A stretch of 64,000 nt of DNA, taken from Escherichia coli. Lineage in GTDB: Bacteria > Pseudomonadota > Gammaproteobacteria > Enterobacterales > Enterobacteriaceae. The position numbers and the translations under genes are program-made. The notes beneath the pieces were generated by a model. That model was not told where the DNA came from. It did no database searches and was given only the letters and a program-made list of their open reading frames with translations. The first letter of the stretch is position 1; each line of letters opens with the position of its first letter. This document shows positions 3,393-14,890 of this stretch, one piece after another. The DNA is taken from assembly GCF_013122565.1 (NCBI RefSeq), contig NZ_CP053258.1. One strand, given 5' to 3'.

Positions 3393-4583
3393 ATGAGTGT
3401 ACGTTTAGTGTTAGCCAAAGGGCGCGAAAAATCATTACTTCGTCGCCATCCGTGGGTCTTTTCCGGGGCCGTTGCCCGCATGGAAGGTAAAGCCAGCCTC
3501 GGTGAAACCATCGATATTGTTGATCATCAGGGAAAATGGTTAGCACGCGGCGCTTATTCGCCAGCTTCGCAAATCCGGGCGCGCGTCTGGACGTTTGACC
3601 CGTCTGAGTCTATCGACATTGCTTTTTTTTCCCGCCGTTTGCAACAAGCACAAAAATGGCGTGACTGGCTGGCGCAAAAAGATGGCCTCGACAGCTATCG
3701 TTTAATCGCCGGAGAATCTGATGGCCTGCCGGGTATTACTATCGATCGTTTCGGTAATTTTCTGGTGCTGCAACTGCTGAGTGCTGGGGCAGAGTATCAG
3801 CGCGCGGCATTAGTTAGCGCCCTGCAAACGCTTTACCCGGAATGTGCGATTTACGATCGTAGCGATGTTGCGGTACGTAAAAAAGAAGGGATGGAGCTGA
3901 CCCAGGGCCCAGTCACCGGCGAGTTGCCGCCTGCCCTGCTGCCGATTGAAGAACACGGCATGAAGCTGCTGGTGGATATTCAGCACGGACACAAAACGGG
4001 CTACTACCTGGACCAGCGAGACAGCCGCCTGGCTACCCGCCGCTACGTTGAAAATAAACGTGTGCTGAACTGTTTCTCCTATACCGGTGGTTTCGCCGTA
4101 TCGGCACTGATGGGCGGTTGCAGCCAGGTTGTCAGCGTTGATACCTCCCAGGAAGCGCTGGATATTGCACGGCAGAACGTTGAGCTGAACAAACTGGATC
4201 TGAGCAAGGCTGAGTTTGTCCGTGATGATGTCTTTAAATTGCTGCGTACTTATCGCGATCGCGGTGAAAAATTTGACGTTATCGTGATGGACCCGCCGAA
4301 GTTTGTTGAGAATAAAAGCCAGTTGATGGGCGCGTGTCGTGGCTATAAAGATATCAACATGCTGGCGATTCAGTTGCTGAATGAAGGCGGTATTCTCCTG
4401 ACTTTCTCCTGTTCCGGTCTGATGACCAGCGATTTATTTCAGAAAATCATCGCGGATGCCGCAATTGATGCCGGCCGTGATGTACAATTTATAGAGCAGT
4501 TCCGTCAGGCAGCCGATCATCCGGTGATCGCTACCTACCCGGAAGGGCTATATCTGAAAGGGTTTGCCTGTCGCGTCATGTAA
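3393..4583 (+). CDS. rlmI: 23S rRNA m5C1962 methyltransferase RlmI, 396 aa
   Basis: ORF 3393..4583; PUA-like N-terminus plus SAM-dependent methyltransferase fold. Confidence 0.93.
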
Positions 4584-6837: not shown

Positions 6838-8892
6838 TTACGGTTTTCTCGCTACCGGCACATCCAGATTTTTCAGTATTTCCACAAAGGGAGAGGGATT
6901 CTCTTTGTTAAACAGTGCCCATACCCGATGGCGTGCCCGGGTCAGCGCCACGTACATTAACCGCCGTTCTTCAGCGTCCGGGAAATCCTCAACCGGTGGC
7001 AGTAGCGCCTCTTCCATAATCGACTCCCGCGCCGCAGCCGGAAAACCATCACTCCCCTCCTGCAAGCCAACGATGATGACGTAATCCGCCTGTTGCCCTT
7101 TGCTGGCATGAATGGTCATAAAGTCGATTTGCAACTTCGGCCAGCGTGTTGCCGCTTTTTCCAGGCTGGCAGGTCTCATGTGATGGTAACGCGCCAGGAT
7201 AAGAATGCGCTCTTCCGGTTTGGCATAACCAGAGAGCTTATCCAGCAAAGCGTCAAGTTGACTCTCATCCAATAACGTGACGGCTTTTTTGTCTCCATTG
7301 GTTAAGCTGTTTAGCGGCTTTTTCAACTGGCCTGGGTTCTGCTGAATAAACCGGTTTGCCACCTCACCGATACGACTGTTAAAACGGTAAGTCGTGTCTA
7401 AATCACAGCGATCGCCTTCACCAAAGTTTTCATGGAAAGCGGTGGTGAGCGACATTTGCGCACCGCTGAATCGGTAAATCGCCTGCCAGTCATCACCAAC
7501 GGCGAACAACGTCGTCTGACTGTTTTGCTTGCGTAATGCCGCTAACAACGCTGCACGCTGCGGCGAGATATCCTGAAATTCATCAACCAGAATATGCTTC
7601 CACGGGCTGATAAAGCGACCTTTCTCCAGAATCACAATCGCCTGGTGAATAAGGCCCGAAAAATCGACAGCGTTTTCTGCCTTCAGCGCACCTTTCCAGG
7701 CTTTTAATAACGGGGCCATCAACTTGATACGTTTACTGAACAGATCGCGAATCTCTTCGGGTGCACTGGCAATCATTTCTGCCTGTGCACCGCCGTGCAT
7801 CCGCATCAGACTTACCCAACGATCGAGGCGTGAGGCAAGACGACGCTGTAATTTTTCATCATCCCAGAAGTTACCTTCTGGCACTGACCACTGCATTTCT
7901 TCCGTCAGCCATTGCCGCCAGCCCTTCGCCTGCGCTTTCTTTTCGCTGCATTGCTTGCGCCACTCAGCAATAAAGAGTTCATGACGGGCAGCGGTATCAT
8001 TTTCCAGTTTGCTGACTATCGGAACTTTTTTGCTGCCCTGCTGAATAATATGCAGCGCCAGCGCATGAAACGTGCGTGCGGTAATGTCTTCAGTATGTAG
8101 CCGTTCGCGAATACGCTCGTCCATCTCTTCAGCGGCTTTGCGACCAAACGCCAGCAATAAAATTTGCTCAGGGGACGCTTCACCACGCGCCAGCAACCAG
8201 CCTGCACGGGCCACCAGCACCGACGTTTTTCCGCTTCCTGCACCTGCCAGCACTAACAGAGAATGCTCGCCATTAACGACTGCCCGGGCCTGCGCCGGAT
8301 TCAGCGGTGAAGACTCGACCTGGCGGAAAAAATCCGCATACTCGGTAAGCATGGCTTCGGTATACGCCTGGTTATGCTGCAACCGAGCGCTTTCAATATC
8401 TTTCAACCAGGCCTGACATTTACGCCACGCCTCACGGCAGTTATCGAATTCTTCCAGTCGGTTAACCGGCAACGGCAACGCCGACATAGCCTGGCGGATT
8501 TGTTGCTGAACGCCAGAGGTTTGCTCACGCGTCAGCCATTTATTTTCTCCAGTGTGCGTGGCAATCAAATCCAGTTGCTGGCGTAAAACACCAGACGCAA
8601 TTTCGCTCATCTCGCCACTCCACCGCCGCCAGTGAGCATCAAGATGATGGTAAAAACGCTGCGTCTCGCCCCATTCGGTGCCGTGCAGACGCACCACTTT
8701 TTCATCCGGCAGTACAAACTCCAGTTCGCCCCATACCAGACCACGCTTACAGTGAATCGCCAGTAATTGATTGAAAGGAATAAGGTATTCGTGGCGATCG
8801 CCGGAGACTTTAATCCCGGCATTGAGGATCACCGCCCGATCATAAGGGTGCTGTGCCAGACGTTTTCCAAGCGTTGTCGCTTTCAGTTCCAT
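6838..8892 (-). CDS. helD: DNA helicase IV (UvrD-family SF1 helicase), 684 aa
   Basis: ORF 6838..8985 trimmed to MELKATTLGKRLAQHPYD; Walker A AGAGSGKTS; ATG confirmed 8890-8892. Confidence 0.92.
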   Translation of the reverse strand: MELKATTLGKRLAQHPYDRAVILNAGIKVSGDRHEYLIPFNQLLAIHCKRGLVWGELEFVLPDEKVVRLHGTEWGETQRFYHHLDAHWRRWSGEMSEIASGVLRQQLDLIATHTGENKWLTREQTSGVQQQIRQAMSALPLPVNRLEEFDNCREAWRKCQAWLKDIESARLQHNQAYTEAMLTEYADFFRQVESSPLNPAQARAVVNGEHSLLVLAGAGSGKTSVLVARAGWLLARGEASPEQILLLAFGRKAAEEMDERIRERLHTEDITARTFHALALHIIQQGSKKVPIVSKLENDTAARHELFIAEWRKQCSEKKAQAKGWRQWLTEEMQWSVPEGNFWDDEKLQRRLASRLDRWVSLMRMHGGAQAEMIASAPEEIRDLFSKRIKLMAPLLKAWKGALKAENAVDFSGLIHQAIVILEKGRFISPWKHILVDEFQDISPQRAALLAALRKQNSQTTLFAVGDDWQAIYRFSGAQMSLTTAFHENFGEGDRCDLDTTYRFNSRIGEVANRFIQQNPGQLKKPLNSLTNGDKKAVTLLDESQLDALLDKLSGYAKPEERILILARYHHMRPASLEKAATRWPKLQIDFMTIHASKGQQADYVIIVGLQEGSDGFPAAARESIMEEALLPPVEDFPDAEERRLMYVALTRARHRVWALFNKENPSPFVEILKNLDVPVARKP

Positions 8893-9014
8893 GACTCTGT
8901 AGATCCACACGAAATTATTTCTTATCAGTGTAACCGTCAGAGAAAACGTGCTCCAGCCCAAAAAAACGTTACAATTGCCGCCCATTACTGAAAACCACAG
9001 TAAAGCGAGGTTTT

Positions 9015-9461
9015 ATGCGTACCGTTTTGAACATTCTGAACTTTGTGCTTGGCGGATTTGCCACCACTCTGGGCTGGCTGTTGGCGACTCTGGTCAGTAT
9101 TATGCTGATTTTTACCTTACCGCTGACACGATCCTGCTGGGAGATCACTAAACTGTCTCTGGTGCCTTATGGCAATGAAGCTATTCATGTCGATGAACTG
9201 AACCCGGCTGGCAAAAATGTGCTGCTGAATACTGGCGGTACGGTATTGAATATTTTCTGGCTGATTTTCTTTGGCTGGTGGTTATGCCTGATGCACATTG
9301 CAACGGGCATCGCACAATGTATTTCCATCATTGGCATTCCTGTCGGCATTGCGAACTTTAAAATTGCCGCTATTGCACTATGGCCGGTCGGTCGTCGCGT
9401 GGTATCGGTAGAAACAGCGCAAGCTGCGCGTGAAGCCAATGCACGTCGTCGTTTTGAATAA
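9015..9461 (+). CDS. yccF: Inner membrane protein YccF (DUF307), 148 aa
   Basis: ORF 9015..9461; hydrophobic. Confidence 0.9.
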   Translation: MRTVLNILNFVLGGFATTLGWLLATLVSIMLIFTLPLTRSCWEITKLSLVPYGNEAIHVDELNPAGKNVLLNTGGTVLNIFWLIFFGWWLCLMHIATGIAQCISIIGIPVGIANFKIAAIALWPVGRRVVSVETAQAAREANARRRFE

Positions 9462-9479
9462 TCCACTAATATGGCCTTT

Positions 9480-11633
9480 ATGCTAAGTCCTTTGCTCAAA
9501 CGCTATACCTGGAACAGCGCCTGGCTGTATTACGCGCGTATTTTTATTGCGCTTTGTGGAACCACAGCGTTTCCGTGGTGGCTGGGTGATGTAAAACTGA
9601 CGATTCCGCTGACGCTGGGGATGGTGGCAGCGGCGCTGACCGATCTCGATGACCGACTGGCGGGACGTTTGCGTAACCTCATCATTACGCTGTTCTGCTT
9701 TTTTATCGCCTCGGCCTCAGTAGAATTGCTGTTTCCCTGGCCCTGGCTATTTGCGATTGGCTTAACGCTCTCTACCAGCGGCTTCATTTTGCTCGGCGGT
9801 CTGGGTCAACGCTATGCAACAATTGCCTTCGGTGCATTGCTGATCGCCATTTACACTATGTTGGGAACATCACTGTATGAGCACTGGTATCAGCAGCCGA
9901 TGTATCTGCTGGCCGGTGCCGTCTGGTACAACGTCCTGACACTTATTGGTCATCTGCTGTTCCCGGTCCGCCCGCTGCAGGACAACCTGGCGCGTTGCTA
10001 TGAACAACTGGCGCGTTATCTTGAGCTCAAGTCGCGCATGTTTGATCCTGATATTGAAGATGAAAGCCAGGCACCGCTGTACGATTTGGCTCTCGCCAAC
10101 GGTCAGCTGATGGCGACATTGAATCAGACGAAACTCTCGCTGCTGACCCGCTTACGTGGCGATCGTGGTCAACGGGGAACGCGTCGCACGCTGCATTATT
10201 ACTTTGTCGCACAGGATATTCACGAGCGTGCCAGCTCTTCTCATATTCAGTATCAAACATTGCGTGAACATTTTCGCCACAGCGACGTGCTGTTCCGTTT
10301 TCAGCGGCTGATGTCGATGCAGGGCCAGGCGTGCCAGCAACTGTCACGCTGTATTTTGCTGCGTCAGCCTTATCAACATGATCCGCATTTTGAGCGCGCT
10401 TTTACGCATATTGATGCTGCCCTGGAGCGGATGCGCGATAACGGCGCGCCTGCCGATTTACTCAAAACACTGGGATTTTTGCTGAACAATTTACGCGCCA
10501 TTGATGCCCAACTGGCAACAATTGAATCAGAACAGGCCCAGGCACTGCCCCATAATAATGACGAAAATGAGCTCGCTGATGACAGCCCGCACGGATTGAG
10601 TGATATCTGGCTGCGTCTTAGCCGTCACTTCACGCCGGAATCCGCCCTCTTCCGTCATGCGGTAAGAATGTCGCTGGTGTTGTGCTTCGGCTACGCCATC
10701 ATTCAAATAACCGGAATGCATCACGGGTATTGGATCTTGCTGACAAGTTTGTTTGTCTGCCAGCCAAACTATAACGCCACGCGCCACCGCCTGAAGTTAA
10801 GGATTATTGGTACGCTGGTAGGTATCGCCATTGGCATTCCTGTGCTGTGGTTTGTACCGTCACTGGAAGGGCAGCTGGTGCTACTGGTTATTACCGGCGT
10901 GCTCTTTTTTGCCTTCCGTAACGTGCAATATGCCCATGCAACGATGTTCATCACACTTTTGGTGCTACTGTGTTTTAACTTGCTGGGTGAAGGTTTTGAA
11001 GTAGCGTTACCTCGCGTAATCGATACGCTGATTGGTTGTGCCATTGCGTGGGCGGCAGTGAGCTACATCTGGCCTGACTGGAAGTTTCGCAATCTGCCGC
11101 GCATGCTCGAACGCGCCACAGAGGCCAACTGTCGCTATCTCGATGCCATACTGGAGCAATACCATCAGGGGCGTGATAACCGTCTGGCGTATCGTATTGC
11201 CCGCCGCGATGCACACAACCGTGATGCTGAACTGGCGTCGGTGGTATCAAATATGTCCAGCGAACCGAACGTTACCCCGCAAATTCGCGAAGCCGCGTTT
11301 CGGTTGCTGTGCCTTAACCATACGTTTACCAGCTATATCTCAGCCCTCGGTGCTCACCGGGAGCAGTTAACTAATCCTGAAATTCTGGCGTTTCTTGATG
11401 ACGCAGTTTGCTATGTTGATGACGCGTTACATCATCAACCTGCTGATGAAGAACGCGTCAATCAGGCATTAGCTGGCCTGAAACAGCGGATGCAGCAACT
11501 TGAACCACGGGCAGACAGCAAAGAACCTCTGGTCGTACAACAAGTTGGGTTATTGATTGCATTACTGCCAGAGATTGGTCGTCTGCAACGCCAGATTACT
11601 CAAGTTCCGCAGGAAACTCCTGTTTCGGCGTAA
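9480..11633 (+). CDS. yccS: Inner membrane protein YccS (FUSC-like), 717 aa
   Basis: ORF 9471..11633; start set at second ATG (MLSPLLKRYTWNSAW) per remembered 717-aa length; 9471 is an alternative. Confidence 0.85.
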   Translation: MLSPLLKRYTWNSAWLYYARIFIALCGTTAFPWWLGDVKLTIPLTLGMVAAALTDLDDRLAGRLRNLIITLFCFFIASASVELLFPWPWLFAIGLTLSTSGFILLGGLGQRYATIAFGALLIAIYTMLGTSLYEHWYQQPMYLLAGAVWYNVLTLIGHLLFPVRPLQDNLARCYEQLARYLELKSRMFDPDIEDESQAPLYDLALANGQLMATLNQTKLSLLTRLRGDRGQRGTRRTLHYYFVAQDIHERASSSHIQYQTLREHFRHSDVLFRFQRLMSMQGQACQQLSRCILLRQPYQHDPHFERAFTHIDAALERMRDNGAPADLLKTLGFLLNNLRAIDAQLATIESEQAQALPHNNDENELADDSPHGLSDIWLRLSRHFTPESALFRHAVRMSLVLCFGYAIIQITGMHHGYWILLTSLFVCQPNYNATRHRLKLRIIGTLVGIAIGIPVLWFVPSLEGQLVLLVITGVLFFAFRNVQYAHATMFITLLVLLCFNLLGEGFEVALPRVIDTLIGCAIAWAAVSYIWPDWKFRNLPRMLERATEANCRYLDAILEQYHQGRDNRLAYRIARRDAHNRDAELASVVSNMSSEPNVTPQIREAAFRLLCLNHTFTSYISALGAHREQLTNPEILAFLDDAVCYVDDALHHQPADEERVNQALAGLKQRMQQLEPRADSKEPLVVQQVGLLIALLPEIGRLQRQITQVPQETPVSA

Positions 11634-12225
11634 GAGAGTCAGCCCATTCTGCAAGCTCCTGGCGGCGTGCCACCGGGAGCGCAGCTTCATGAATACCGAT
11701 AATGGCACCTTCAAGCATAAACAGAATCTTTTCTGTCACCAGACTGTTTTGCTGCCGCAGTCGCAACCAACACATTTTTGCCCCAAGTATACGTAACGCC
11801 CGTACATCCTTAATCCCCACCTCCCCGAGAATCGCTTCCAGATGAAAAGACATATTGGGCAAATCTTTCAGTCTTTCCCGGGTATTGCGCGTGCTTTTCT
11901 CTTTCAGCGCTGCATCGAGAGAATATTTCGACAGACGCACCAGCTTCAGTTGATTTCGCCATAGACTTTCATCAACCCGATAGTAATTGAGGGTAACGGA
12001 TCGGCCACACTTTTTATATGTCAGCCAGACAGGCGGATGTTTTACACAGTACTGTGCACTTTGCTCACAAGCCCGAAGATACAACTCACCATCAGAAACC
12101 ATCGCAAACACCGTGTCGTCAACGGTCAGGCTGTAACTGCCAAACAATGATCGGTATTCAATTGTGCCCAACGTTGCCAGGTATTCTTGTGATTTATAGA
12201 TCCGCTTATAGGAGAGGCTTTTCAT
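11596..12225 (-). CDS. sxy: Competence regulator Sxy/TfoX, 209 aa
   Basis: ORF 11596..12225; MKSLSYKRIYKSQEYLATLGTIEYRSLFGSYSL; 3' end overlaps yccS by 38 nt. Confidence 0.92.
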   Translation of the reverse strand: MKSLSYKRIYKSQEYLATLGTIEYRSLFGSYSLTVDDTVFAMVSDGELYLRACEQSAQYCVKHPPVWLTYKKCGRSVTLNYYRVDESLWRNQLKLVRLSKYSLDAALKEKSTRNTRERLKDLPNMSFHLEAILGEVGIKDVRALRILGAKMCWLRLRQQNSLVTEKILFMLEGAIIGIHEAALPVARRQELAEWADSLTPKQEFPAELE

Positions 12226-12401
12226 AAAATTCCTTTTAAAATCATAACATAAAAGAATGATTCACATTAACGGATCCGTTAACTACGAAAATAGGCAACT
12301 TATTCTTAAGGGGCAAGATTAATTTATGTTTTCCCGTCACCAACGACAAAATTTGCGAGGCTCTTTCCGAAAATAGGGTTGATCTTTGTTGTCACTGGAT
12401 G

Positions 12402-12421
12402 TACTGTACATCCATACAGTA
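12402..12421 (+). promoter_or_regulatory. LexA operator (SOS box) in the sulA promoter
   Basis: TACTGTACATCCATACAGTA, perfect CTGT-N8-ACAG palindrome, 23 nt upstream of the sulA ATG. Confidence 0.9.
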
Positions 12422-12443
12422 ACTCACAGGGGCTGGATTGATT

Positions 12444-12953
12444 ATGTACACTTCAGGCTATGCACATCGTTCTTCGTCGTTCTCATCCGCAGCAAGTAAA
12501 ATTGCGCGTGTCTCTACGGAAAACACTACAGCCGGGCTTATCAGTGAAGTTGTCTATCGCGAAGATCAGCCCATGATGACGCAACTTCTTCTGTTGCCAT
12601 TGTTACAGCAACTCGGTCAGCAATCGCGCTGGCAACTCTGGTTAACACCGCAACAAAAACTGAGTCGGGAATGGGTTCAGGCATCTGGGCTACCCTTAAC
12701 GAAAGTAATGCAGATGAGCCAGCTCTCCCCTTGCCACACCGTGGAATCAATGGTTCGCGCTTTACGCACGGGCAATTACAGTGTGGTGATCGGTTGGTTG
12801 GCAGATGATTTGACTGAAGAAGAGCATGCTGAACTTGTTGATGCGGCAAATGAAGGTAACGCTATGGGGTTTATTATGCGTCCGGTAAGCGCTTCCTCTC
12901 ACGCAACGAGACAACTTTCCGGGCTAAAAATTCACTCTAATTTGTATCATTAA
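12444..12953 (+). CDS. sulA: SOS cell-division inhibitor SulA, 169 aa
   Basis: ORF 12438..12953 trimmed to [15 protein letters not shown]. Confidence 0.93.
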
Positions 12954-13176
12954 GTAAATTTAGGATTAATCCTGGAACTTTTTTTGTCGCCCAGCCAATG
13001 CTTTCAGTCGTGACTAATTTTCCTTGCGGAGGCTTGTCTGAAGCGGTTTCCGCGTTTTTTTTCTGTAAATTGTCGCTGACAAAAAAGATTAAACGTACCT
13101 TATACAAGACTTTTTTTTCATATGCCTGACGGAGTTCACACTTGTAAGTTTTCAACTACGTTGTAGACTTTACATC

Positions 13177-13309
13177 GCCAGGGGTGCTCGGCATAAGCCG
13201 AAGATATCGGTAGAGTTAATATTGAGCAGATCCCCCGGTGAAGGATTTAACCGTGTTATCTCGTTGGAGATATTCATGGCGTATTTTGGATGATAACGAG
13301 GCGCAAAAA
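13177..13309 (+). promoter_or_regulatory. ompA 133-nt 5' untranslated leader (stabilising hairpins, Hfq/MicA target region)
   Basis: Sequence from GCCAGGGGTGCTCGGCATAAGCCGAAG to the ATG matches the remembered ompA leader; TSS placement is from literature. Confidence 0.7.
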
Positions 13310-14362
13310 ATGAAAAAGACAGCTATCGCGATTGCAGTGGCACTGGCTGGTTTCGCTACCGTAGCGCAGGCCGCTCCGAAAGATAACACCTGGTACACTG
13401 GTGCTAAACTGGGCTGGTCCCAGTACCATGACACTGGTTTTATTCCTAACAATGGTCCGACCCACGAAAACCAACTGGGTGCAGGTGCTTTTGGTGGTTA
13501 CCAGGTTAACCCGTATGTTGGTTTTGAAATGGGTTACGACTGGTTAGGTCGTATGCCGTACAAAGGCGACAACATCAACGGTGCATACAAAGCTCAGGGC
13601 GTTCAACTGACCGCTAAACTGGGTTACCCAATCACTGACGATCTGGACGTATACACTCGTCTGGGTGGTATGGTATGGCGTGCAGACACCAAGTCTAACG
13701 TACCTGGTGGCGCATCCACTAAAGACCACGACACCGGCGTTTCTCCGGTCTTCGCTGGCGGTGTTGAGTACGCGATCACTCCTGAAATCGCTACCCGTCT
13801 GGAATACCAGTGGACCAACAACATCGGTGACGCACACACCATCGGCACTCGTCCGGACAACGGCCTGCTGAGCTTGGGTGTTTCCTACCGTTTCGGTCAG
13901 GGCGAAGCAGCTCCAGTAGTTGCTCCGGCTCCAGCTCCGGCACCGGAAGTACAGACCAAGCACTTCACTCTGAAGTCTGACGTTCTGTTTAACTTCAACA
14001 AAGCAACCCTGAAACCGGAAGGTCAGGCTGCTCTGGATCAGCTGTACAGCCAGCTGAGCAACCTGGATCCGAAAGACGGTTCCGTAGTTGTTCTGGGTTA
14101 CACCGACCGCATCGGTTCTGACGCTTACAACCAGGGTCTGTCCGAGCGCCGTGCTCAGTCTGTTGTTGATTACCTGATCTCCAAAGGTATCCCGGCAGAC
14201 AAGATCTCCGCACGTGGTATGGGCGAATCCAACCCGGTTACTGGCAACACCTGTGACAACGTGAAACAGCGTGCTGCACTGATCGACTGCCTGGCTCCGG
14301 ATCGTCGCGTAGAGATCGAAGTTAAAGGTATCAAAGACGTTGTAACTCAGCCGCAGGCTTAA
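13310..14362 (+). CDS. ompA: Outer membrane protein A precursor, 350 aa (variant loop allele versus K-12)
   Basis: ORF 13238..14362 trimmed to [21 protein letters not shown] signal; beta-barrel plus C-terminal OmpA domain; APAPAPAP hinge. Confidence 0.95.
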
Positions 14363-14377
14363 GTTCTCGTCTGGTAG

Positions 14378-14407
14378 AAAAACCCCGCTGCTGCGGGGTT
14401 TTTTTTG
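14378..14407. terminator. Bidirectional Rho-independent terminator between ompA and matP
   Basis: AAAAA-CCCCGC-TGCT-GCGGGG-TTTTTTTT. Confidence 0.85.
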
Positions 14408-14437
14408 CCTTTAGTAAATTGAACTGACTTTCGTCAG

Positions 14438-14890
14438 TTATTCCTTACCCAGCAATGCCTGCAGATCCTGCTTCAGAGAAGACATTTTATTCGCGTATTT
14501 CTCTTTGTTTTCCGCATCTTCAATCAGCTGAACAATCGTTTCAGAAAGCGTTTTACCGCGACGCTGCGCAAGACCAGCCAGACGTTGCCAGACAATAAAT
14601 TCCAGATCGATCGATTTTTTGCGCGTATGCTGGTGTTCCGCATTAAAATGGCGCTTCCGTCTGGCCCGAATGGTTTGCTTCATGCGATTGACCAGTTCCG
14701 GATTCATATGCTTGTCAATCCAGCCATTTACCAGCACGGGTTCATTTTCCAGCGAGAGCAACACATCGACGGCTTCCTGGGCGGCACTGGCTTCTATGTA
14801 ACGGGTGATTAACTCCCCTTCGCGGTGCTTCTTCACCAGATACTTCCATTTCCAACCGCTTTCAAGATTTTCAAGTTGTTGATATTTCAT
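14438..14890 (-). CDS. matP: Ter macrodomain organiser MatP, 150 aa
   Basis: ORF 14438..14890; [26 protein letters not shown]. Confidence 0.93.

Follow-up and report, generated by a model that had tools for sequence, protein, structure and literature searches.

The 38-nt convergent overlap of yccS and sxy in Escherichia coli looks like a by-product of gene packing, next to a conserved yccS 3'-end hairpin inside sxy

In the 64,000-nt stretch of Escherichia coli DNA that we analysed (the window), the convergent genes yccS and sxy (tfoX) overlap at the ends of their coding sequences, and comparison across species suggests that this overlap looks like a neutral by-product of tight gene packing. 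What is conserved at the junction is a stem-loop of the yccS-sense RNA that lies inside the sxy reading frame, and we show that this hairpin constrains Sxy codon choice at residues 182-190. Neutral packing plus a 3'-end hairpin inside sxy, taken as the whole explanation, has in our estimate a probability of roughly 70%. The overlap itself is already known. As originally reported by the first-pass annotation it matters little, since the reference annotation already contains it, publications describe the converging transcripts and its length behaves as neutral.

In the ORF listing of the window, yccS encodes 720 aa and stops at TAA 11631-11633, and sxy, on the opposite strand, encodes 209 aa and stops at TAA 11598-11596 (Table 1). 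The YccS length is counted from the first ATG at 9471; the start annotated in K-12 corresponds to window position 9480 (717 aa). On the YccS side, the shared stretch, given by the ORF coordinates and read directly in the sequence, encodes residues 710-720 (TQVPQETPVSA) plus the yccS stop, and on the Sxy side 2 nt of codon 198, residues 199-209 (TPKQEFPAELE) and the sxy stop. The first codon positions of the two genes lie opposite each other, and in each gene the third codon position is opposite a second position of its partner. The 38 nt claimed for this overlap are borne out by these coordinates and by the K-12 MG1655 RefSeq annotation, in which sxy (1021138..1021767, +) and yccS (1021730..1023883, -) overlap identically. 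All but one of 5426 complete E. coli genomes (5425) matched an 801-nt query; among the matches listed, yccS and sxy were both annotated beneath the match in all records, and the identical overlap was also found in a strain with only 91% identity.

Table 1. Features at and around the yccS/sxy junction, in window positions
Feature	Position	Strand	Evidence
yccF, upstream gene of the yccFS operon (transcript end at 11688)	9015..9461	+	ORF, K-12 annotation, Conway 2014
yccS CDS, putative inner-membrane transporter of the FUSC family; second in the yccF-yccS operon	9471..11633	+	ORF, Pfam, K-12 annotation
sxy (tfoX) CDS, 209 aa, CRP-S regulon co-activator	11596..12225	-	ORF, Pfam, annotation
Convergent yccS/sxy CDS overlap, 38 nt	11596..11633	.	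ORF coordinates, K-12 annotation
Non-conserved 46-nt stretch from YccS Q708 to Sxy W194 (last conserved codon of each)	11598..11643	.	Multi-species alignment, columns 36-82
yccS 3' UTR, 55 nt, wholly antisense to the sxy CDS	11634..11688	+	TRS 3' end
GC-rich stem-loop in yccS-sense RNA, antisense to sxy codons A181-A192	11649..11684	+	RNA folding, 50-species consensus
Published steady-state 3' end of yccS (yccFS) mRNA, dominant position 11688	11680..11692	+	TRS mapping
C-rich, G-poor stretch, candidate rut region	11700..11877	+	Base composition, yccS sense

Both yccS and sxy are bona fide protein-coding genes, and neither is a spurious antisense ORF. Sxy matches the Pfam domains TfoX_N (residues 14-106) and TfoX_C (116-194), YccS matches FUSC-like, FUSC_2 and FUSC, with the FUSC matches stopping at residue 685, and the TfoX_N, TfoX_C, FUSC-like and FUSC_2 matches are far above cut-offs. 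Orthologues of both were recovered in 80 species. An annotation artefact as the source of the overlap was rejected, the stop codons being unambiguous and full-length orthologues existing for both proteins.

By calling stop positions across loci with protein-motif anchors (three Kosakonia loci were valued from separate stop calling), we found an overlap of 4 to 80 nt in 76 of 80 Enterobacteriaceae species, with lengths of 4, 7, 11, 14, 16, 20, 23, 32, 35, 38, 41, 44, 47 or 80 nt. The four species without overlap had values of 0, -11, -249 and -2286 nt. Irrespective of overlap length, the anchor-to-anchor DNA distance between the conserved cores was 129-140 nt (mostly 139) in 73 species. Conservation reaches "LLPEIxRLQxQ" in the YccS alignment and only W194/L198 in that of Sxy; the overlap involves nothing but the C-terminal tails, which are non-conserved in both proteins, and the stop codons of both genes shift position between genera within the 46 nt that separate the cores. 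First, the fixed distance between the cores means that the stop codons move about inside a stretch of constant length that is unconstrained. Second, the length of the overlap is not conserved, which speaks against the overlap itself being under selection. Third, Escherichia-wide, 11 of the 38 overlap sites are variable, no less than in the single-coding flanks (0.21 and 0.27).

We also estimated how often such an overlap arises by chance, keeping the real context and putting random sequence in place of the 46 non-conserved nt between the cores. Of 20,000 such trials, 87% gave overlapping ORFs and 74% an overlap of 38 nt or more. Given the gene packing, the 38-nt overlap is not beyond chance. 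Overlaps like this are what abutting convergent genes should produce and are no sign of regulation, and about 75 convergent CDS overlaps are annotated in E. coli (Huvet & Stumpf 2014, PMC4161906). A small hairpin within the overlap (CAGGA-AAC-UCCUG, 11609-11621) was rejected as a candidate element; it is not conserved and falls in the most variable alignment columns.

The first-pass annotation also stated that the two transcripts must overlap at their 3' ends, with no room for a terminator between them. The overlap of the transcripts holds: full-length yccS and sxy mRNAs are necessarily complementary at their 3' ends, and published data agree. Moreover, an end of both transcripts short of the overlap is impossible for translatable mRNAs, because both stop codons sit within it. 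The second part is literally true, but read-through is not unbounded. The absence of room for a terminator does not mean the absence of a terminator, as the partner ORF itself contains the yccFS 3'-end hairpin.

The primary 3' end of yccS has been placed at K-12 position 1021675, window position 11688, in the TRS tables of a single study, with adjusted p values of 1e-17 to 9e-9 (Supplementary Data 3 and 4, PMC10687069). This end lies 55 nt beyond the yccS stop, 93 nt into the sxy CDS and 4 nt past the stem of the hairpin. The core helix pairs 11655-11662 with 11673-11680, and in E. coli pairing between CUGC (11649-52) and GCAG (11681-84) lengthens it; the fold obtained in the window agrees with the published TRS fold (-22.5 kcal/mol), and the hairpin is found once only in the window. 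No U-tract follows the stem: the longest U run is 2, the hairpin tail is CUUCAUG and the sequence after the stem reads CUUCAUGAAU. Compared with an intrinsic terminator, the junction therefore has the hairpin and lacks the U run directly after it. A scan of 9000-13300 for consensus terminators and promoters returned terminator-like sites at chance (6 vs 5.4 expected), none of them placed to serve yccS or sxy at the junction, and a search of 8500-14500 against Rfam at permissive E-values gave no match at the junction. Elsewhere in 8500-14500, Rfam matches were at chance level near the ompA terminator and of snoRNA type at 12199-12276.

Downstream of the hairpin, the C/G ratio is 1.8-3.0 over the candidate rut region, with 30 C vs 10 G at 11760-11837, a C-richness antisense to a coding strand that is partly generic. 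By analogy with known 3' ends, the hairpin-terminated yccS end most likely belongs to the Rho-dependent class with a protective stem-loop, the Rho step being the most likely way in which transcription stops. The supplements of Adams 2021 and of PMC9160355 contain no bicyclomycin, rho-mutant or 3' end data for yccS/sxy.

In a 50-species alignment, the hairpin was the sole RNAalifold consensus structure of the region, and 95% of its stem cells were paired, versus 40-54% with partners slid. Compensatory changes occur in 3 hairpin pairs, and the observed values were reached in 0 of 500 shuffles. The codons of the stem are frozen at synonymous sites (L183 CTC, P184 CCG, R188 CGC, E190 GAG), with a normalised synonymous entropy of 0.05-0.47 versus 0.84 as the median of 71 conserved sxy codons outside the stem (Mann-Whitney p = 2.4e-4; the hairpin conservation statistics ignore phylogeny). 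L183, for instance, is CTC in 95% of species, and CTG and CTT prevail at other Leu sites. More distant relatives also carry hairpins: one (L084) has a different hairpin sequence at the equivalent site, and in another (L085) the two genes are separated by a 44-nt gap that carries an intergenic hairpin. We found no earlier description of a hairpin in a convergent ORF constraining its partner's synonymous sites family-wide.

The orientation of its pairs bears on which of the two RNAs the hairpin serves. Its stability is greater in the yccS sense for 41 of the 50 species, and G-U pairs are tolerated only in that sense (48 cells vs 7 in the sxy sense, most of the asymmetry coming from one Gln189-fixed site). 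L183 CTT and R188 CGT are almost never used, although both would preserve pairing in the sxy sense. These observations argue against a hairpin kept for a reason specific to sxy, be it a structure in sxy mRNA for translation or decay or a palindromic protein-binding DNA site, with the yccS 3' end there by coincidence. So does the mapped yccS end, so close to the stem, and the hairpin of L084, with another sequence at the same relative position, favours a positional function in yccS RNA over a sequence-specific binding site. The sxy-specific reading would fit with the inverted repeat being a near-perfect palindrome that keeps its stability (mean -18.2 kcal/mol) when read in the sxy sense, with the control of sxy by mRNA structure in H. 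influenzae (PMC2248739) and with RNA-level constraint elsewhere in sxy, codons 6-14 being likewise frozen at synonymous sites; on balance, we consider it very unlikely.

The hairpin is unable to serve sxy as a terminator because it is located upstream of the sxy stop. Downstream of that stop, yccS codons 686-702 have normal synonymous diversity with no dip, and RNAalifold over 75 species found no conserved structure in the region (-5.65 kcal/mol). From these negative results, sxy probably ends diffusely, via Rho, within antisense yccS. A sxy terminator candidate within yccS (stem 11576-11526, then UUCUUUGCU) was rejected as a conserved element. As to expression, sxy is barely expressed in laboratory culture, and the yccS CDS is weakly expressed, with about 0.15 read starts per nt in the TRS data. 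No natural inducing condition is known for E. coli sxy (PMC3330819).

The position of the hairpin also bears on whether it could act as a collision-type bidirectional terminator, at which head-on RNAP collisions would end both transcripts. The concept of collision termination and its stem-loop requirement were stated by Wang et al. 2022 (bioRxiv 10.1101/2022.10.23.513370), and a single strong stem-loop is indeed found near the junction of this convergent pair. However, it precedes the sxy stop by 51-88 nt, inside the sxy ORF and not between gene boundaries, and sxy transcripts ending there would be non-stop mRNAs. It is flanked by neither an A-tract nor a U-tract, and sxy transcription is too rare for frequent collisions (PMC3330819), making this explanation barely credible.

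We return to the reading that we prefer, neutral packing with a 3'-end hairpin inside sxy, which could work as follows. yccFS and sxy are convergent transcription units that abut without intergenic DNA, an arrangement that dates back to the origin of the family Enterobacteriaceae or earlier. With about 46 nt between the YccS and Sxy cores under little protein constraint, each frame would read on to its first stop, and gain or loss of stops through point mutations and small indels would give genus-specific overlaps, 38 nt in Escherichia, probably without a function of their own. Because no spacer exists, the yccFS 3'-end element sits inside the sxy ORF. The ribosome would depart at the yccS stop and, if yccS behaves as the class of Dar & Sorek 2018, Rho would load onto the untranslated C-rich antisense-sxy RNA and stop transcription, after which 3'-5' exonucleases would trim back as far as the protective hairpin. 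The hairpin limits stable yccS antisense RNA to the final 93 nt of the sxy CDS.

The junction has also been read as a regulatory one. In ExcludonFinder (2025, PMC12288877), sxy-yccS belongs to the core set of 165 convergent excludons, each found in at least 50% of 58 MG1655 transcriptomes; a true excludon would imply mutual repression of yccFS and sxy, through colliding RNAPs or through a duplex cut by RNase III, with yccFS helping to silence sxy. However, the criterion used there is the overlap of RNA-seq coverage only, which is automatic once the CDSs overlap, and we found neither anticorrelated expression nor RNase III dependence for the yccS/sxy pair, nor any data in which sxy mRNA responds to yccS transcription, the effect that the first-pass annotation had raised. 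Hot spots of p19-captured dsRNA inside yccS indicate that some antisense RNA of the sxy direction pairs with yccS mRNA, but their positions are some 560 and 1455 nt into yccS, with none in the overlap among the hot spots listed, and their read counts are low. The convergent adjacency of the genes, at most about 250 nt apart, is shared by 79 of the 80 Enterobacteriaceae and by Enterobacterales that are less closely related, and the stable yccS 3' UTR runs antisense over 93 nt of the sxy CDS, both of which favour mutual repression; against it, the overlap length is not conserved, four species have no overlap and both genes are weakly expressed in culture. Furthermore, a conserved hairpin that ends yccS RNA early is more like insulation than interference. 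We therefore hold a true excludon to be unlikely, although it keeps some weight: selection for antisense control could be what keeps the junction tight and conserved, in which case the overlap region would be functional as RNA and its length would not. If yccFS read-through modulated sxy, this would bear on the lack of a known natural inducer of E. coli sxy.

A bolder and quite unlikely idea is that the hairpin and the C-rich stretch in the Sxy codons form a conditional insulator and that yccFS-sxy is a bistable excludon. Were this true, relaxation of Rho or induction of yccFS would lead to antisense read-through over sxy and silence the competence regulator, and auto-induction of sxy would run into yccFS. 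The set-point of such an excludon would be guarded by synonymous-site selection across Enterobacteriaceae.

Compared with known systems, yccS/sxy shows no essential difference from the convergent overlapping pairs described in bacteria (Huvet & Stumpf 2014, PMC4161906): each stop lies inside the opposite ORF, and the overlap is a short one of C-terminal tails, arisen via gain or loss of stops. At the same junction, Phytobacter and Buttiauxella have a 4-nt overlap of the TTAA type, shorter than the 38 nt of E. coli; Kluyvera, like Phytobacter, falls in the range of 0-4 nt. yccFS and sxy were named as converging operons (Conway 2014, PMC4161252), and they resemble convergent excludons in that their 3' transcript ends are complementary. 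Excludons are defined by mutually exclusive expression via antisense RNA or RNase III, whereas yccS/sxy is placed among them by transcript overlap alone, an overlap that is forced by that of the CDSs and does not come from leaky intergenic termination.

The concept of intrinsic or bidirectional terminators between convergent genes is said to have been set out by Ju and colleagues in 2019. yccS/sxy is alike in having a single GC-rich stem-loop near the junction, and differs in that this hairpin has no U- or A-tract and is not intergenic. The relative L085, in which the genes lie 44 nt apart, does have a hairpin of this intergenic type.

The closest likeness in mechanism is to the U-less stem-loop ends of Rho-dependent transcripts (Dar & Sorek 2018, PMC6061677). 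As in that class, the 3' end of yccS is precise and directly follows a stable stem-loop, no U-tract is present and C exceeds G downstream; 3' ends inside the coding region of a downstream gene, as for yccS, were mentioned explicitly in that study. The yccS end differs in that its hairpin is part of a convergent ORF whose synonymous sites it constrains family-wide, and the yccFS hairpin illustrates clearly how an RNA element can limit a convergent gene's synonymous sites over family-level divergence.

The yccS/sxy junction sits in a gene run that reads yccF-yccS (+), sxy (-), then sulA and ompA (+) from the ORFs. The 38-nt convergent overlap proposed by the first-pass annotation is confirmed by the ORF coordinates (table below) and by the RefSeq annotation of K-12 MG1655, in which sxy (1021138..1021767) and yccS (1021730..1023883) also share 38 nt. 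The overlap is therefore already known as part of the reference annotation. Of 5426 complete E. coli genomes, 5425 matched an 801-nt query spanning the junction, and every record listed annotates both genes at the match; the 38 nt are also found in a strain of only 91% identity. The yccS start is placed at window 9480 (717 aa) in K-12 RefSeq and at the first ATG, 9471 (720 aa), 10 nt past the yccF stop, by PGAP in other strains.

Features of the yccS/sxy junction in window coordinates
Feature	Coordinates	Strand	Remark
yccS ORF	9471..11633	+	stop TAA 11631-11633
sxy ORF	11596..12225	-	stop TAA 11598-11596
yccS/sxy shared stretch	11596..11633	both	38 nt
Hairpin core helix	11655-11662 paired with 11673-11680	+	extension in E. 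coli to 11649-11684

The shared stretch codes for residues 199-209 of Sxy and 710-720 of YccS. These tails both fall outside Pfam domains (the TfoX_C match stops at residue 194, the FUSC-family ones by 685) and beyond the conservation seen in alignments, which reaches W194/L198 in Sxy and “LLPEIxRLQxQ” in YccS. By calling stops via protein-motif anchors in loci from 80 Enterobacteriaceae species, we found an overlap in 76, the remaining four giving 0, -11, -249 and -2286 nt. Its length is 4 nt (TTAA/TTAG) in Phytobacter, Buttiauxella and Pluralibacter, 7 in Kosakonia, 11 in two Citrobacter and two Kluyvera, 14 or 23 in Salmonella, 16 in Leclercia and Silvania, 23, 32 or 47 in other Citrobacter, 35 in Intestinirhabdus and Pseudenterobacter, 38 in Escherichia (41 in E. 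albertii), 44 in Enterobacter and Lelliottia, and 80 in Trabulsiella. The tight junction is lost in Superficieibacter electus (L051, 4115-6402 of that locus), where ~2.3 kb separate the two stops, and in UBA5654 (L049, 4124-4374), where 249 nt do. Irrespective of overlap length, the distance between the conserved Sxy and YccS anchors is 129-140 nt in 73 species, mostly 139; thus, the DNA is fixed and the stop codons shift within ~46 unconstrained nt. Within Escherichia, the overlap is no less variable than its single-coding flanks despite coding on both strands (11/38 sites, or 0.29, versus 0.21 and 0.27). With random sequence in place of these 46 nt and the real context kept, 87% of trials gave overlapping ORFs and 74% an overlap of at least 38 nt. 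The overlap is a default product of tight packing, and we infer that its length is neutral.

That the yccS and sxy transcripts must overlap, as also claimed at first pass, is right and documented already in publications. Conway et al. 2014 (PMC4161252) name the pair as converging operons and report overlapping 3' ends for 276 of 370 convergent operons genome-wide, and 75 of the 663 overlapping adjacent pairs of E. coli are convergent (Huvet & Stumpf 2014, PMC4161906). ExcludonFinder (PMC12288877), which asks only for overlapping RNA-seq coverage, includes sxy-yccS in a set of 165 convergent excludons, all of them detected in half or more of 58 MG1655 transcriptomes. This listing and the conserved adjacency would suit a true excludon-type mutual repression of yccFS (the yccF-yccS operon) and sxy. 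However, overlap length is not conserved, and among the dsRNA hot spots listed by p19-capture (PMC7373196) the only ones for this pair, of low abundance and RNase III type, lie inside yccS, ~560 and 1455 nt upstream of its stop (1021516-1021539 and 1022408-1022431, older K-12 numbering), so that we consider such repression unlikely. These hot spots imply some sxy-direction antisense transcription across yccS. The regulatory effect of yccS read-through on sxy mRNA suggested at first pass is hypothetical.

We favor another explanation, with a probability of roughly 0.7: the overlap would be a neutral by-product of an old convergent junction without spacer, and the functional element would be a yccFS 3'-end stem-loop embedded in sxy, probably of Rho-dependent type, which would confine stable antisense RNA to the sxy 3' end and constrain codons of Sxy. 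Since there is no intergenic DNA, any 3'-end signal must sit inside the partner gene. For translatable mRNAs it is logically impossible that both transcripts end before the overlap. The initial argument that there is no room for a terminator has to be revised, since the yccS 3'-end element is located inside sxy. In the TRS data (PMC10687069, Supplementary Data 3 and 4), a yccS terminus classed as “Primary” maps to K-12 1021675 (-), peak 1021671-1021683 (adjusted p = 2.6e-17, 1.0e-17 and 9.2e-9); it has a hairpin of -22.5 kcal/mol and no U run longer than 2, and the 3' UTR is given as 56 nt. Matching of the sequences places this terminus at window 11688, and its hairpin is identical to the GC-rich one that we folded independently. 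Stable yccS mRNA is therefore antisense to the final 93 nt of the sxy CDS. Supplementary Data 4 of that study also gives a “nearby TSS” of Thomason 2015 at window 11658 (+; K-12 1021705), within the hairpin 5' arm and 30 nt upstream of the yccS terminus; a 5' end left by processing is more likely here than a promoter. Read starts per nt are ~3-fold higher in the yccS 3' UTR (0.41-0.52) than in the CDS (0.15-0.18).

The hairpin, whose motif is present once in the window, is the sole consensus structure in a 50-species alignment over 11562-11700. Standard pairs fill 95% of the cells of its 10-bp helix versus 40-54% with slid partners, three pairs show compensatory changes and 0/500 shuffles attain the observed values; these tests, like the synonymous-site and strand comparisons below, carry no phylogeny correction, but other synonymous sites are near saturation in the same species. 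Because the stem falls in conserved Sxy residues (ALPxxRRQEL), synonymous sites were tested. Across 80 species, codon use is L183 CTC 95%, P184 CCG 99%, R188 CGC 92.5%, E190 GAG 91% and A182 GCG 76%, with a normalised codon entropy of 0.05-0.47 versus a median of 0.84 in a set of 71 further sxy codons of equal conservation (Mann-Whitney p = 2.4e-4). The structure is better in yccS sense than in sxy sense: 95.0% versus 86.8% paired cells, 48 versus 7 G-U cells, and a mean of -20.6 versus -18.2 kcal/mol, the yccS-sense hairpin being the stabler one in 41/50 species. L183 CTT and R188 CGT, which keep pairing only in sxy sense, are nearly absent. This strand asymmetry and the mapped yccS 3' end make an sxy-specific role of the palindrome very unlikely. 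A collision-type bidirectional terminator at the stem is more improbable still, given that the stem is positioned upstream of the sxy stop codon and has neither A-tracts nor U-tracts. That the yccS 3' hairpin would constrain synonymous sites of Sxy throughout the family is possibly unreported; a non-exhaustive search found no description.

On the sxy side, no 3' end is reported, and the gene is barely expressed in culture. Synonymous-site and RNAalifold tests found no conserved structure downstream of the sxy stop: synonymous diversity at yccS codons 606-706 is normal, RNAalifold over 75 species gives only -5.65 kcal/mol, and the C/G ratio there is ~1. At the other end of the gene, synonymous sites of Y6, Y10 and E14 (window 12184-12210, -) are near-invariant in 80 species (E14 GAA 100%, Y10 TAT 99%). 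These frozen codons may reflect 5' mRNA structure or translation-initiation control of the kind that governs H. influenzae sxy (PMC2248739). Further upstream, a stationary-phase antisense transcript crosses sulA (window 12438-12953; PMC4161252), where p19-capture found strong dsRNA hot spots (~2000 reads; PMC7373196). This RNA (- strand) heads in the sxy direction from immediately upstream, and may represent an extended leader of sxy or stem from an extra sxy promoter. Just past the ompA stop, sub-threshold partial Rfam matches at 14358-14446 (STnc370, RsmY 3' end, istR, Leu leader) most likely correspond merely to the strong ompA terminator hairpin.

The order ycbZ-matP-ompA-sulA-sxy-yccS-yccF-helD is retained in distant Enterobacterales, with Sxy 38-43% identical. 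In one such lineage (L084, 26-nt overlap), a different 13-bp hairpin occupies the equivalent place inside sxy, ~75-105 nt past the yccS stop; in a second one, with a 4-nt overlap, the hairpin is reduced to a weak remnant; and the 44-nt gap of L085/L086 (~4128-4171) holds a perfect intergenic GC hairpin (GGGUAGCCGGC...GCCGGCUACCC). This pattern fits a requirement for a stem-loop at that position 3' of yccS. Downstream of the E. coli yccS end, the C/G ratio of the same strand climbs to 1.8-3.0 over 11700-11877. Rho-dependent transcripts were described as ending precisely right after a stable stem-loop, without U-tract and with C > G downstream (Dar & Sorek 2018, PMC6061677); the yccS 3' end shares all three properties, and we infer for this site that it is probably Rho-dependent.
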